Shown piece by piece: positions 31,272-63,024 of a DNA stretch of 64,000 bases. Source of the DNA: a virus. The notes beneath the pieces are model-generated. The model searched no databases and was not told where the DNA came from. It saw only the letters and a list, made by a program, of their open reading frames with translations. Both the position numbers and the translations under genes were made by a program. Numbering within the stretch: the stretch's first letter is position 1; the number at the start of each line of letters is the position of its first letter. The DNA lies in the IMG/VR virus record IMGVR_UViG_3300025413_000010; one strand, 5' to 3'.

Positions 31272-31820
31272 TTATCCTTTGTTTACATAAAAATAGTGTT
31301 GTCCAATTTGGGCAATTCTAACATAGCCCAATAGATGCCAGTGCGGGTGAATATAGTTAGCATGATAGAATTGAGCGCCGCGTGTAATGTCAGCACAGAT
31401 ACCGTGATATACTTGATATGCAACAGTTTTACTGTCCTGATATGTAGTACTCGCATACATGATAGGTCTATTTCTCATACAAACCCAAGAGAACTGACAA
31501 ACTCTACCACGCTTCTGTCTTACGACTTTACATGGAGTATTACCAAATCTCTTATCGCCAACTCGATTCATAACAACCTGAGTTACGGCAATTTTACCCT
31601 TAATAGACTGATTTCCTGCTTCATAATAAGCATTTTGTGCAAGACAATCAATCTGTTGTTTATCGTAGTTAGATTCATTAACGACTGGCTTTCCGAAAAC
31701 TTCAGCTTTTGGTGTATTTGCTCGAGCTGTTTCTGAAAAACTCATTATTACAACACTCAAACAAACCAGTGCAATTATAACAATATGACCAAAAGACTTA
31801 ATTTTATCGAATAGTAACAT
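31272..31820 (-). CDS. SleB/CwlJ-type cell wall hydrolase (Hydrolase_2)
   Basis: CLAQNAYYEA, AVTQVVMNRV, CQFSW, GAQFYHANY, IGQHYFY; start placed at ATG 31820 behind RBS AAGAGGA. Confidence 0.88.
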   Translation of the reverse strand: MLLFDKIKSFGHIVIIALVCLSVVIMSFSETARANTPKAEVFGKPVVNESNYDKQQIDCLAQNAYYEAGNQSIKGKIAVTQVVMNRVGDKRFGNTPCKVVRQKRGRVCQFSWVCMRNRPIMYASTTYQDSKTVAYQVYHGICADITRGAQFYHANYIHPHWHLLGYVRIAQIGQHYFYVNKG

Positions 31821-31829
31821 TCGTTCCTC

Positions 31830-32061
31830 TTTTAAATTAACGATTCTGGCGATTGCATGTGTCCTTATAGAGCGTCTCATCTCGTGACAGTGATACAATG
31901 CTAAAAGAAGATACAAATAATGGATACTCTCGGGTATCTTCTAGTCCATCTCCCTCTTACTGGAGTTGCAAAATCATTATGCTTTTATGGCGGTAATCCG
32001 CTGCTTTCTTCTGAAAGCTATGTAAGAGCTCATGGAGGCCATGCCTCCGATTATATTTATA
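31830..32061 (-). promoter_or_regulatory. Late promoter (32054-32061) and about 220-nt structured 5' leader of the hydrolase gene
   Basis: TATAAATA; hairpins GGAGGC/GCCTCC, GCTTTC-AGAA-GAAAGC, GCGG-ATTA-CCGC, stems CTCTTAC/GTAAGAG and AGAAGATAC/GTATCTTCT. Confidence 0.5.
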
Positions 32062-32110
32062 TAAGTCTTAGAAATTATTTTATCGGTTGGACTTATTTTT
32101 GTAACGTTTG

Positions 32111-32218
32111 AACTTAGAAGAACACTGACTGATACCTGCACTTCTCACCGTGTGCTTTTCGAGTCGCGATCCCTAGATATCCGCGTGGCGTTATTCGTTG
32201 TCAGTGTTCATCAAAGTT
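32111..32218 (-). ncRNA. Candidate structured ncRNA module A
   Basis: Closing stem AACUUUGAUGAACACUGAC / GUCAGUGUUCUUCUAAGUU; no ORF. Confidence 0.55.
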
Positions 32219-32386
32219 TGCTGGGTACTATCGCTCCGTTTAAGGGCAATCGCTATACGTAGCCCCCCTAGAATAAATCTTTCATCGGTTGCGCCGAACA
32301 TCCCACATAGTGGCGGTTATCAGCTAGGGTGATGATCTTCCTCGATAGTTAGGATCTTGCGTTCTTTTGCTCGGACCCAACAAAAC
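32216..32386 (-). ncRNA. Candidate structured ncRNA module B
   Basis: Begins right after late promoter; closing stem UUUGUUGGGU / ACCCAGCAAA; inner CCCUAG/CUAGGG stem and hairpins. Confidence 0.55.
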
Positions 32387-32387
32387 T

Positions 32388-32395
32388 TATTTATA
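32388..32395 (-). promoter_or_regulatory. T4-type late promoter with no ORF downstream
   Basis: TATTTATA on + strand. Confidence 0.65.
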
Positions 32396-32630
32396 CCACG
32401 GTTTACCGCGTGACAGGAAAACTTACCACTAGGGCGGGATACTTGCTCTGAATCTTTGACTCGGGAACTTCTTCCTCTGTCCCACATTCTCGGTTTTCTC
32501 TCTTATTACGACCAGGCTTAATGTTGTTTAAGCCCTTTGCTAGTACCTGATTTCAACAAAGCAGTATCAGTCAAGTTAACTGTCTTACTATGCATTCACC
32601 AGGCTTTTCCTGCCCCTCGATAAACCGTGG
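32396..32630 (-). ncRNA. Candidate structured ncRNA module C (about 235 nt)
   Basis: Closing helix CCACGGUUUAUCG/CGGUAAACCGUGG then GGCAGGAAAA/UUUUCCUGUC; inner hairpins GGCUUAA/UUAAGCC, GGGAC/GUUCCC, stem UUGACU/AGUCAA. Confidence 0.6.
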
Positions 32631-32637
32631 AGCTAAA

Positions 32638-32744
32638 CTTAGAAGAACCTACGATATGGAGCGCCCTCTCCACGGCAGCCACCAACGTCTTCGTCAAGAC
32701 TTATTCCGGTGGTAGAACCCGTCGGCAAAGTAGGTTCATCTAAG
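32638..32744 (-). ncRNA. Candidate structured ncRNA module D
   Basis: Closing stem CUUAGAUGAACCUAC / GUAGGUUCUUCUAAG enclosing three hairpins. Confidence 0.6.
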
Positions 32745-33040
32745 TGGTGGGATTCTGTTGCTAGGTTCCCACCAAACCCCGAAAGATCATGCTGCTAGAG
32801 CAAGATTTCCATATGCGCTGTTATCGTTTGCATCTACGTTTATTTAGCCACTCGGCCAGCGAATCAGTCTCGAATCTTCCTATTCCGCCCAAGTCGATCC
32901 TAGTTCACCCCCATCAACTACTACGGTAACAATCCCTGACTTTGCGCGAAGTACTCGACACGAGTATCGTAGTAGATGGTGGAGGTGACGGGTACTGCCC
33001 CCGTGTCCTCTAGACCTTTATTGTTGATTGTCAACAACTG
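32743..33040 (-). ncRNA. ssrA: Circularly permuted (two-piece) tmRNA
   Basis: Acceptor piece ends ...GGGGGCAGUACCCGUCACCUCCACCA (3' end 32977); spacer 32913-32976; coding piece starts GGGGGUGAACUAGGAUCGAC (32912); G3:U70 pair; tag ANDNSAYGNLALAA-stop at 32787-32831; outer ends approximate. Confidence 0.93.
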
Positions 33041-33050
33041 ATAAAATTAT

Positions 33051-34001
33051 TTATGCTGCTTCAGCGTATTCCACAGCAAGATTAAGAGCCTTAACCTTAC
33101 GTTCCTTGTTAGCGCCAAACCAGCTGTTATACAGACGAGTATCAGCAGTACGACCAAGTTCGTGATCAGTCAGATACGTAACAGCATTAAATGCCTGCCA
33201 CCAACTACCTTCAGCATAACGAGCGCCAGGCTGTTCATGAACAATAGCCAAAGCCAATTCAGCAGCACGAGACAGATCATTAGATTCTTTATTAGACGAA
33301 GGAAATACCTGATTAAAATACTCAGTCATTGTTTCGCCAGTATAACGCTTTGACCCAAGAAATGCAGCCATTTCCTTATAGGTGTTCAGCTTATCCTTAG
33401 CAATACCCAGAGTTTCCTTCACAGTATCGCCATCAAAAGCACGACGATGATCAACACGAAGCATCTTATCAGCCTTAGTCGAAAGCGACAGCGAAAGAGT
33501 GTTCATACAAACAACACGGATGGGAGTAAACTGAACAGTAATCGACTTACCAAACTGATGAGGATTACTGAACAATAGATAAGATTCAACCTTATCTCCA
33601 CCGAAAAGATCAAACCCTTCATTTACCTTAGCCAAAGCCCAAACATACTGACCGTTACGCAGAGAACCAGCAGTATGCATCTGCATGTCACCATTACCGA
33701 TAAAGTCATTGAAGAATTCGAAGGCTTCGCTATTCTGACAAGGAACCCAATTCTGAGTAACAACGTCAAGAATACGATCATCGCTCGAACGAACTAGAGC
33801 TTCACGCCCAGTATATACGTTCCGACCATTCAGCTCAACATGAAGAGGAACCTTACGAACTTCCCAGTTAAGACCAGCTTCCTTCATCATTTGCTCGGGA
33901 GTAAGATCGCCGTGAACAGCCTTACCAAGACCATGCCAAGGGGTATCCCCAACATAAGCCATCTGAGCTTCACCATTAACAAACTCAAGTTCATGTGCCA
34001 T
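33051..34001 (-). CDS. DUF932-family protein
   Basis: MAHELE, PWHGLG, QN.EAF.FF, TAGSL, TPIRVVC.NTL, W.AFNAVT. Confidence 0.85.
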   Translation of the reverse strand: MAHELEFVNGEAQMAYVGDTPWHGLGKAVHGDLTPEQMMKEAGLNWEVRKVPLHVELNGRNVYTGREALVRSSDDRILDVVTQNWVPCQNSEAFEFFNDFIGNGDMQMHTAGSLRNGQYVWALAKVNEGFDLFGGDKVESYLLFSNPHQFGKSITVQFTPIRVVCMNTLSLSLSTKADKMLRVDHRRAFDGDTVKETLGIAKDKLNTYKEMAAFLGSKRYTGETMTEYFNQVFPSSNKESNDLSRAAELALAIVHEQPGARYAEGSWWQAFNAVTYLTDHELGRTADTRLYNSWFGANKERKVKALNLAVEYAEAA

Positions 34002-60707: not shown

Positions 60708-60846
60708 CTTTGTTCTCCAACCGCTGCTTGATGATAGCAATCGTTTCATCAAGAAACTCGTGAGAAGAGGTGCCATCCATCTTAATCATAAACTTTGCAA
60801 GTTCAAGACGATCAAGTGCAAGTTTTAAAAGTTCTCTATCAGTCAT
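60700..60846 (-). CDS. Small hypothetical protein
   Basis: MTDRELLKLALD. Confidence 0.5.
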   Translation of the reverse strand: MTDRELLKLALDRLELAKFMIKMDGTSSHEFLDETIAIIKQRLENKDV

Positions 60847-61408
60847 TATAAGCCAATCCCGGAAACCAAGCATCACGAATGGCTTCATACTTTGCCGTGC
60901 GACCAAGGTTATTACGGATCGTATTGCGAACAGTATCATAGACCTTAGACTTATCTTCCCAACAACTAAACACCGTAGAACGAGTGTACTGATCAAAGTT
61001 AGGAGCAATATCTAGAGCAAAAGTTTTACGATCTATACCCTCATCTTCAATCCGTTCTAGGATATGTTCAATAGAAAGACATTTAAATGCAACTTCAATG
61101 TTGTAATAATGCTCAAACTCAGACAGCCGATCACGATCTTCGGCAGGCAGATGAGCCTTGATGTCATCCAGCTTTTCATCCAGAATGATTTCAACGATGT
61201 TGCGATCTTGTAGAATTGCTTCCTTTGCACGATGAATCTGGAGATACCACTGACACTTCAATTTCAACATATGTCCATCATCAAAGCGAACCACGAATCC
61301 TTCAAGGTCTTCCAGATCACGAACGTATTCAAGGAAAGCCTTCATATCATTCTGAGGTTCGAATGCACGAACTACAGGGATATTATATCGAGAAATAAGA
61401 TTAAACAT
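60839..61408 (-). CDS. rnlA: RNA ligase 1 C-terminal half
   Basis: YNIPVV, motif IV EGFVVRF, motif V KLK..WY..IH, LDD; ATG 61408 overlaps stop of upstream small gene. Confidence 0.85.
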   Translation of the reverse strand: MFNLISRYNIPVVRAFEPQNDMKAFLEYVRDLEDLEGFVVRFDDGHMLKLKCQWYLQIHRAKEAILQDRNIVEIILDEKLDDIKAHLPAEDRDRLSEFEHYYNIEVAFKCLSIEHILERIEDEGIDRKTFALDIAPNFDQYTRSTVFSCWEDKSKVYDTVRNTIRNNLGRTAKYEAIRDAWFPGLAYND

Positions 61409-61628
61409 TATGAAATTCCGATTCTTCAATATGGAACTGAGGTACCCAGTCACCTACATTTTCTCCGACATCGCGCATCACGTCAATCCAATCTTGGGAC
61501 TTCTCACGCTCCCAATCACCTGCAGCTTTCGCGGCATCATAGGTTTCATACACTCCAAACACATACCGATCGCCGTTATAATCAGTTTCGTCCTTGATAA
61601 GTACAAAAACTTTCATGTCAATCTCCAT
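61401..61628 (-). CDS. Small hypothetical protein lying between the two rnlA halves
   Basis: VFGVY.T...A; own promoter TTGACA-N17-TATACT at 61641-61669. Confidence 0.65.
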   Translation of the reverse strand: MEIDMKVFVLIKDETDYNGDRYVFGVYETYDAAKAAGDWEREKSQDWIDVMRDVGENVGDWVPQFHIEESEFHNV

Positions 61629-61676
61629 TCCTTATAGTTTAGTATACCACGGTTTTGGAAAAATGTCAACTATTTT

Positions 61677-61744
61677 TATAAATAAGATGGCTGTCGCGGT
61701 ATCCCCATACCCACAGCCTCTAACGCTAAACAGGAGCATCAGCT
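61677..61744 (+). promoter_or_regulatory. Late promoter and structured leader of homing endonuclease
   Basis: TATAAATA; GGCTGT-CGC-GGTA-TCCCCA-TACC-C-ACAGCC hairpin; RBS AGGAG. Confidence 0.6.
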
Positions 61745-62371
61745 ATGGGTATTTATTGTACGTATCTTATCACATATAAAGGCAACAAACTGCCGCCATT
61801 CTATATCGGATCGTCTAATATTAATAGATTAGAAGAAGGATACAGAGGAAGTGTATCTTCTGTTAGATATGGTAAGATATGGAAACAAGAATTAAAAGAA
61901 AATCCTCATCTATTTAAATATCATATAATCACTACTCATGATACTAGAAAAGAAGCAACAGAAAAAGAACTTCAACTACAAATAACCTTTAAGGTCATGC
62001 ACAACCCAATGTATATTAATGAATCATATGCTAGAATTAATGGAGTTCATGGGTTATCTTTATCTGGTAAGAATCATTGGTCTAAACAACCAGGAAAACT
62101 TCATAATGCTAAGATAAACCATCCTAGAGGAATGCTTGGTAAGAAACATACAGATGAATTTAAGCAATTTATTTCAGAAGTTCAAATTGGTGAAAAGAAT
62201 CACTTTTATGGAAAGAAACATTCACCCAAAGCTTTAGAGAAAATGAGAATAGCGGCATCAAATACCATATGGATTACCAATGGTATAGATTCAACTCGAC
62301 ATCCTAAAGATGCCGCTATTCCAGAAGGTTGGTTTAGAGGTCGTCGCTTAAAGAAGCATATTGACCAGTAA
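61745..62371 (+). mobile_element. Free-standing GIY-YIG (Seg-like) homing endonuclease with NUMOD3 motifs
   Basis: GIYCTY...FYIGS, Y.GS, A.EKE, YIN; GKKHT, N.FYGKKHS, WITNG, GW.RGR. Confidence 0.88.
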
Positions 62372-62966
62372 CCATATGACGAATAGCAGTTAATGTTAGA
62401 GTAGGTTCTTTACCATAATCAATTACAATACGCTTTTGAGGATGCATCCATTCAAAAATTGGAGTGTGTCCGTTATTAATTACATCCCAGCAAAATGCTT
62501 CATAATCAATATCTGACAACTTTACAAATTGTTTAATCATTTCATGAAAATCTTGAGCAACCATTTTGGTGCCCCAGATAAGTTTACCTTCATGAGCAAA
62601 AACTGAGCACATTGATCCGTCTAGCTTCTCAAGGATAGCATGAGGGCGCGAAAGATCAATGACATGCTCCTGCGTCTCCTCACGCTCATTCACATTGAAG
62701 AACTTGTGGAAAGGACGACGGATGATGTCACCAGTCTTGGAGTCGAAGATGATACCACGAAGTTCGCGACGAATCTTAGCATTAAAGTTCGTAATTGGTA
62801 TCCCAGAGATAGTAGTAGAGTTTACATCAGGAAACGTATCAGCCATCATCACGTTGTAGTTGATGACGGTATATGACCCTTTATCGGCGACTACAAACTC
62901 ATCGCGACCTTCAATGGCAGGCAGCACATCAGCGATGTTGGTGATGTGGGGAAATTCATAATTCAT
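62334..62966 (-). CDS. rnlA: RNA ligase 1 N-terminal half
   Basis: RELRGIIF, RPFHKFFN.NE, motif I EKLDGS, TK, TPIFEW, RIVIDY, LTAIR; ends TAA inside endonuclease gene. Confidence 0.88.
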   Translation of the reverse strand: MNYEFPHITNIADVLPAIEGRDEFVVADKGSYTVINYNVMMADTFPDVNSTTISGIPITNFNAKIRRELRGIIFDSKTGDIIRRPFHKFFNVNEREETQEHVIDLSRPHAILEKLDGSMCSVFAHEGKLIWGTKMVAQDFHEMIKQFVKLSDIDYEAFCWDVINNGHTPIFEWMHPQKRIVIDYGKEPTLTLTAIRHMVTGQYASLSDDL

Positions 62967-63024
62967 TATATATCCTTTCAATTACGCTTATTATACCCCC
63001 ACATCACACTAATGTCAAGCGGTA

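Follow-up and report, generated by a model that had tools for sequence, protein, structure and literature searches.

Two small RNA modules of a freshwater T4-like phage, here named D and A, are closed by the same terminal helix and enclose unrelated interiors. They belong to a family of constant-handle RNAs. About 17 independent contigs, all of them fragments, carry the handle, with six unrelated cargoes (A, D, E, F, H and I). Different cargoes can replace one another, and modules are gained or lost at fixed slots between RNA genes. Coordinates refer to the window, the whole 64,000-nucleotide stretch of DNA that was analysed (IMG/VR record IMGVR_UViG_3300025413_000010), unless a contig is named.

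Phage operons for tRNAs and tmRNA have been known to contain small stable RNAs since T4 species 1 and 2, and these RNAs are still unexplained. The modules offer a natural internal control in the form of an invariant helix with six unrelated structured interiors, swapped at the same slots in near-identical phages. The handle is therefore separable from the cargo, and each can be tested directly. If the handle is a processing or docking site, the modules would define an RNA family not seen before, and phages would have a modular means of diversifying their non-coding effectors. The handle could then also be used as a natural scaffold from which to express structured RNAs.

The Stable-RNA Island and Its Two Modules

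The window is part of the genome of a T4-like phage. Baseplate and tail genes lie to the left of the island, and a five-tRNA cluster with many small early genes lies to its right. Among the nearby minus-strand genes, the gene for a DUF932 protein is upstream of the island, and those for endolysin, gp59 and gp32 are downstream. The order on the minus strand is permuted tmRNA, D, RNA B, a late-promoter box, RNA C and A. An ORF check of 31917-33050 found no ORF of at least 80 aa spanning the island, and no intrinsic terminator was found on the island's minus strand.

The tmRNA (32743..33089, minus strand) is permuted (two-piece) and of the alpha type, as identified by Rfam (RF01849, 118 bits; RF04321, 105 bits) and ARAGORN, and its tag is ANDNSAYGNLALAA. 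The 3' hairpin of the tmRNA passes straight into the 5' arm of module D. A near-consensus late-promoter box for the tmRNA, CATAAATA, lies at about 33040-33070 (minus strand) inside the 3' end of the DUF932 ORF, and relatives have TATAAATAAGTTATCAGTTG at this position.

Module D (32637..32745, minus strand) begins at the final bases of the tmRNA. Its 16-bp closing helix pairs 32745-32730 with 32652-32637 and encloses 77 nt, for which three inner helices are proposed. The constant arms are ACUUAGAUGAAC (32745-32734) and GUUCUUCUAAGU (32648-32637), with a U.U mismatch at 32738/32644 and the helix extension CUAC/GUAG. The module folds with z = -3.3 relative to shuffles. Module A (32111..32218, minus strand) begins at the final base of RNA C. 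Its 19-bp closing helix pairs 32218-32200 with 32129-32111 and encloses 70 nt, for which two hairpins, one enclosing helix and a pseudoknot are proposed. The arms of A are AACUUUGAUGAAC / GUUCUUCUAAGUU, extended by ACUGAC/GUCAGU. A has the same U.U mismatch as D (32210/32119) and a second one at 32213/32116.

The closing helix common to D and A reads AACUU(A/U)GAUGAAC / GUUCUUCUAAGUU. The pattern GATGAAC-N(70-100)-GTTCTTCTAAG matched twice in the window versus 0.00 times in 100 shuffles, and the interiors of A and D are dissimilar (local-alignment z = -0.5). The first-pass annotation had described two modules of about 107 nt with the same closing stem, the same U-U mismatch, different interiors, and different but complementary helix extensions. 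Mapping on the minus strand bore out this description, with measured lengths of 108-109 nt. The mismatch is present in both modules but is not invariant, as A has U-A there in two groups of relatives. Each module had also been said to follow a larger RNA. This holds for D after the tmRNA and for A after RNA C, but the RNA before A proved to be two separate closed RNAs, B and C.

RNA B (32396..32635, minus strand) is 240 nt long, has no Rfam match, and is closed by CCACGGUUUAUCG / CGCGGUAAACCGUGG in a stem of 13 bp (26-nt imperfect). It is present in the window and in one group of relatives and is cleanly missing from another group, in which D is joined directly to the TATAAATA box and the box is kept. 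This box (32388..32395, minus strand) corresponds to the T4 late-promoter consensus, lies directly upstream of RNA C, and is inferred from that established consensus to be a candidate late promoter. RNA C (32218..32383, minus strand) is a structured RNA of 166 nt, closed by UGUUGGGU / ACCCAGCA and without an Rfam match. When four homologues were folded together with RNAalifold, 6 of the 42 pairs carried compensatory changes, which indicate that RNA C is a true structured RNA. Homologues of RNA C are found in several T4-like freshwater phages (L042:3182-3346, L277, L278, L279), where they are preceded by TATAAATA or a near-consensus box and followed by tRNA genes. A by-eye likeness of B and C to conserved regions of RNase P RNA was dropped, as Rfam did not support it and B is dispensable in relatives.

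Elsewhere in the window, a TATAAATA box (40541-40548, minus strand) stands immediately upstream of the five-tRNA cluster, which ends with a tRNA carrying a CUA (amber) anticodon (40108-40181, minus strand). The small early genes to the right of the island include RNA-repair genes, which encode an Rnl2-like ligase, an Rnl1 ligase and a PNK-like kinase. The T4-type RNA ligase 1 gene seems to be split (60839-62981), with its N-terminal domain in an ORF at 62334-62981 (minus strand) and its C-terminal domain in an ORF at 60839-61453 (minus strand). Between the two halves is an ORF with a NUMOD3 motif (61745-62371, plus strand), probably a homing endonuclease. In several T4-like contigs, gp32 is preceded at a distance of about 450 nt by a conserved 84-nt hairpin with the arms TAAGACATGGATT / AGTCCATGTCTTA (L046:947-1030, L049:6544-6627, L074:6540-6623 and others).

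One Handle With Unrelated Cargoes

Relatives were collected by exact-arm scans of IMG/VR, JGI metagenomes and GTDB genomes, and matches were kept only where the helix continued. Relatives do have the motif, and its arms pair in them, contrary to what would have refuted the earlier annotation. Scans with shorter and longer gaps added only module H. The descriptive core of the earlier annotation, a constant handle with a variable cargo, was thereby strengthened, with four more unrelated interiors and with cargo swapped or absent at orthologous slots.

All six types fold with a closing helix of 16-22 bp and a single mismatch at a fixed position. The common terminal helix consists of an outer 8 bp (AACUUAGA / UCUAAGUU), a pyrimidine-pyrimidine mismatch, and an inner helix of at least 8 bp that usually starts GAAC/GUUC. 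Modules measure about 90-113 nt and their cargoes 55-77 nt. Every module lies on the strand of the adjoining tmRNA or tRNA genes, and to at least one side of it another RNA structure follows at a distance of 0-8 nt.

The slots are defined by their neighbours. Directly after the tmRNA, either D or F is found. D occurs in 11 further contigs at 97-99% identity, while the adjoining tmRNA is only about 79-85% identical; in L207, F occupies the slot held by D elsewhere. A second slot lies between a small closed RNA, "G", and tRNA-Lys(CUU), and it is empty in L274 or holds E (L204), H (L222) or I (L275). Module I keeps only the outer 8-bp helix, AACUUAGA / UCUAAAUU, and a C.U mismatch. The third slot follows RNA C and holds A or a tRNA. 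A is present in most of the 11 D-bearing contigs, with four variants among relatives, and RNA C is followed by a tRNA without A in L040-L042 and L277-L279.

The region around the second slot has the form of a small stable-RNA operon in L204 (minus orientation, about 1596-2100) and in L222:2290-2670. A sigma-70-like promoter (TTGACA..TATAGT) is followed by RNA G, the handle module and tRNA-Lys(CUU). RNA G is closed, is about 90 nt long, and shows a G.U to G-C change in its stem. Downstream of tRNA-Lys(CUU), L204 has an odd 92-nt tRNA-like gene without a normal anticodon loop and a complete RtcB, which is two tRNA genes from module E. L222 has a PTH2 peptidyl-tRNA hydrolase downstream of the same tRNA.

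When five of the cargoes were compared pairwise, local alignment gave z < 1, and within one cargo type the interior is 94-99% conserved. These values bear on the possibility that the modules are ordinary paralogues produced by duplication, with a closing helix that is simply the slowest-evolving part, interiors that have drifted, and no special function for the handle. Such an origin would fit the similar size and overall architecture of the modules, and also the two further common pairs (AC/GU) that several modules have past the constant core. It is very unlikely all the same. Residual interior similarity is zero while 11-13 bp of the arms are identical, and drift sufficient to erase the interiors should have given covarying arms. 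Conservation within a type shows that the interior does not drift freely, and near-identical genomes carry different cargo.

The handle was not found in 80 more distant T4-like loci at up to two mismatches per arm, and no other system of constant stem and variable interior was found there. The tmRNA of such phages either terminates with a hairpin and U-run or runs into a gene. INPHARED phage genomes gave no match. An exact-arm scan of 185,579 bacterial species-representative genomes returned only chance matches, the best of them inside a 476-aa ORF, and BLAST of the island against 401 Alphaproteobacteria returned only noise matches of 25-39 nt; a bacterial origin was rejected on these two results. 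Rfam, searched at gathering thresholds and at E values up to 10, recognised only the tmRNA and tRNAs, with no ribozyme, riboswitch, Y RNA or RNase P family.

Evidence for Pairing at the RNA Level

The sequence evidence favours pairing at the level of RNA, because the modules occur on one strand only, wobble pairs are tolerated, mismatches change to pairs, and helix extensions are specific to the cargo. In the handle of E, a U.G pair replaces C-G and a G.U pair is found in the extension; the opposite strand would have mismatches at these positions. In some variants of A in relatives, both mismatch positions of the handle have become Watson-Crick pairs (A-U or U-A). Each cargo brings its own complementary extension, which stacks on the handle.

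Within the cargoes, three of three substitutions in the proposed helices of D keep pairing, and changes in the cargo helices of A keep pairing, with one adding a pair. The changes in D and A are from G.U to A-U or G-C and from C-G to U.G. This covariation consists of one-sided wobble changes among 3-4 variants, with no double changes, in helices that were derived from the same sequences, and so it lends the proposed inner helices of D and A weak support.

Exchange of the Island and of the Cargoes

The block from the 3' hairpin of the tmRNA through A (32779-32111) is 97.6% identical to that of one group of relatives, whereas the flanking genes are 66-74% identical. In those relatives, an opposite-strand ORF is located between the stop of the tmRNA tag and the 3' terminal hairpin, exactly where the conserved block starts; the block extends to A's last base. 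The flanks of L222 and L275 are near-identical but their cargoes differ, with divergence starting inside the arms. Judging from this mosaic identity, the presence or absence of RNA B, and the cargo swap between L222 and L275, the island is swapped between phages as modules. The high island identity among diverged phages is best explained by recent recombinational transfer, and exchange of this kind accounts for it without extreme constraint.

This opposite-strand ORF, of 256 aa, is inserted in the tmRNA gene at L009:8432-9202 (minus strand) and in other relatives of groups 1 and 2. A GIY-YIG-like motif can be made out by eye near its N-terminus, and the Atlas clusters nearest to it (score 0.94) are of the GIY-YIG/Seg-like kind; Pfam, NCBIfam and PDB searches did not confirm the assignment. 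The ORF looks like a putative Seg-type homing endonuclease that interrupts the tmRNA gene.

The pattern of exchange raises the possibility that the arms act as linkers in DNA. They would be short conserved sites for cassette exchange between co-infecting T4-like phages, kept identical by recombination or gene conversion. The swapped or missing cargo at orthologous slots, the divergence of L222 and L275 from within the arms, and the limits of the D-B-C-A block, which starts at the site of the GIY-YIG-like ORF and ends at the last base of A, all agree with such sites. Shuffling mediated by PeSLs has also been documented in T4-type phages (PMC2839356). Linker sites would have no need to be mutual inverted repeats, to carry stacking helix extensions specific to each cargo, or to tolerate U.G and G.U on the sense strand only. 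Arms of 8-13 bp are very short for homologous exchange, and divergence would start at the arms anyway if they were functionally conserved. As the sole account of the arms, DNA linkers are thus considered unlikely. They are compatible with an RNA handle and may explain how the cargo gets exchanged.

It is highly improbable that the modules are non-autonomous mobile DNA with terminal inverted repeats, either MITE-like, palindrome-associated or attC-like. Inverted terminal repeats, variable interiors, and presence or absence at a site (L274 empty versus L204 filled) are shared with such elements, and each module follows a gene, as attC sites end integron cassettes. No consistent target-site duplications were found, no copy was found outside RNA operons, and all modules point in one direction with respect to the RNA genes. 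The neighbouring genes that were examined included no transposase or integrase. Agreement of the arms with the attC R boxes RYYYAAC/GTTRRRY is confined to AAC/GTT, and the interiors have multiple helices rather than forming one imperfect hairpin.

A Possible Processing Handle

The explanation preferred here, with confidence somewhat short of even, places A and D in a family of small phage RNAs that has not been described before. The constant helix would act as a handle for processing or stabilisation, recognised by a protein and possibly the site of an RNase III-type cut, and the cargo would be the working part. Modules would be transcribed as parts of operons for stable RNAs (tmRNA, RNA C, tRNAs) in a clade of T4-like phages from fresh water, and it would be the constant helix to which the protein binds. 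The likeliest binder would be an RNase III-type double-strand-specific endoribonuclease or another helix-binding factor. Cutting would free the module from its polycistronic precursor and leave a stable stem. A cut at the handle could also set the 3' end of the upstream RNA and trim the neighbours. The cargo may carry a module-specific activity, for example as a protein decoy or aptamer.

An RNase III-type cut is proposed because of the length of the helix, the fixed mismatch, the spacing of 0-8 nt, and the lack of terminators found in the island. The T4 species 1 RNA is reportedly a substrate of RNase III in vitro. The preferred explanation is also favoured by the RNA-repair genes in the vicinity, which are those of the window and the RtcB gene next to E. 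The tmRNA, RNA C and RNA G are each found without a module in relatives, and a module is therefore not needed for maturation of its neighbour. Module I retains only the outer 8 bp, and the mismatch is paired in some copies of A; the recognised feature is therefore not sharply defined. Recombination, rather than recognition by a protein, could be the cause of arm identity.

The position of some modules at the ends of transcription units raises the possibility of another role. They may be cis-acting 3'-end elements of stable-RNA units, such as exonuclease blocks, terminator-like structures or insulators, with an incidental cargo. D ends the tmRNA unit, and in L019 it directly adjoins the stop codon of a convergent gene. 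D or F lies just before the late-promoter box of RNA C, and A closes the RNA C unit, with the next TATAAATA box 50 nt further on. In more distant relatives, the 3' end of the tmRNA has a hairpin and U-run instead. The handle is not followed by a U-tract, and E, H and I are located in mid-operon, upstream of tRNA-Lys. A simple block would need no conserved, structured cargo of 55-77 nt. A role of this kind is decidedly unlikely.

Returning to the processing handle, the cargo had earlier been suggested to act in a guide-like manner. This suggestion was not supported. The cargoes have structure of their own, and for A and D complementarity to the remainder of the 64-kb window does not exceed chance; the longest perfect complements elsewhere in the window, 12 nt for A and 11 nt for D, are typical of shuffled cargo. 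A bolder and rather unlikely proposal is that T4-like phages of freshwater bacteria run modular RNA cassettes. One universal helix would serve both as a protein docking or processing site and as a swap junction for unrelated structured RNA domains. Effector RNAs, as decoys or aptamers against host translation, RNA-repair or defence factors, would be exchanged as integrons exchange genes.

Comparison With Known Systems

RNase III processing stems, such as those in the spacers of rRNA operons and in phage T7 early mRNA, are long helices between functional RNAs and often contain an internal mismatch. The helix of a module differs from these stems in that it encloses a conserved structured cargo and not a neighbouring large RNA. 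RNase III substrates comprise about two turns of double-stranded RNA. Module helices of 16-22 bp with one mismatch are borderline for an enzyme of the E. coli type.

Two RNA motifs suggested by GAUGA were rejected. In a box C/D kink-turn, the C box RUGAUGA faces the D box CUGA, with tandem sheared G.A pairs and a 3-nt bulge. In the modules, the (U/A)GAUGA of the 5' arm faces CUUC in Watson-Crick G-C and A-U pairs, with no CUGA and no bulge. A hammerhead reading was also rejected, as the facing strand and the core motifs did not fit.

The attC sites of integrons have the consensus R'' RYYYAAC and R' GTTRRRY and fold as an imperfect single hairpin with extrahelical bases. They work as single-stranded DNA and need the integron integrase, a tyrosine recombinase. 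The modules resemble them in logic, as in both cases conserved outer inverted repeats that include a mismatch flank a variable centre, and each cassette gene is followed by one element. The attC assignment was rejected because the fit of GATGAAC / GTTCTTC is limited to AAC/GTT, the module interiors are multi-helix, and the phage is of the lytic T4 type. No recombinase was found among the neighbouring ORFs and about 30 window ORFs scanned. MITEs were rejected for want of consistent duplications and because modules keep one orientation, occur in RNA operons only, and number one or two per genome fragment.

The logic of the modules had been compared with that of Y RNAs. Y RNAs and YrlA are 80-130 nt long, with a long stem formed by the ends as the protein-binding site and the remainder as a separate module (PMC4201824). 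The size (92-113 nt) and closing helices (16-22 bp) of the handle modules agree with this plan, and the comparison holds as logic but not as relationship. Covariance models for Y_RNA and YrlA gave no match over 31800-33200 at E values up to 10, and the sole YrlA match in L204, at 22 bits versus a gathering score of 69, was located on a tRNA gene. Bacterial Y RNAs have a GNCGAAN(0-1)G motif near the 5' end and stem-loops like the T arm and D arm (PMC4201824). Reading of A, D, E, F and H, rather than a formal scan, revealed no GNCGAA in the handle or towards the 5' end, and no tRNA-like D or T arms were recognised in these modules. A Y RNA or YrlA would also be expected to have a TROVE (Ro60/Rsr) gene within about 4 kb on the same strand. 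The TROVE domain, PF05731, was not among the nearest genes of the window, and neither it nor an RNase III domain was found in five related records, which are fragments 4-40% complete. Several papers on YrlA also treat the RtcB RNA-repair operon, and RtcB is likewise near module E in L204.

In T4 itself, species 1 and 2 (rnaC and rnaD) are annotated as small stable RNAs of unknown function encoded in line with the tRNA genes, and are therefore processed from a stable-RNA precursor. They have only this genomic setting in common with the modules and no relation in sequence. No shared handle was found in rnaC and rnaD; rnaC has a tRNA-like T arm and an acceptor-like stem, whereas rnaD is weakly structured.

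The PeSL cassettes, like the modules, involve short conserved repeats in T4-type genomes, at which modules are gained, lost and exchanged (PMC2839356, PMC4122927). PeSLs are units of an early sigma-70-like promoter and a terminator stem-loop between protein-coding ORFs (PMC2839356, PMC4122927). They were rejected as an identity for the modules, which lie between RNA genes and have no promoter-like site inside them and no terminator-like site on the minus strand. The arms of the modules, in contrast to PeSLs, are promoterless inverted repeats that close a structured RNA within stable-RNA operons.
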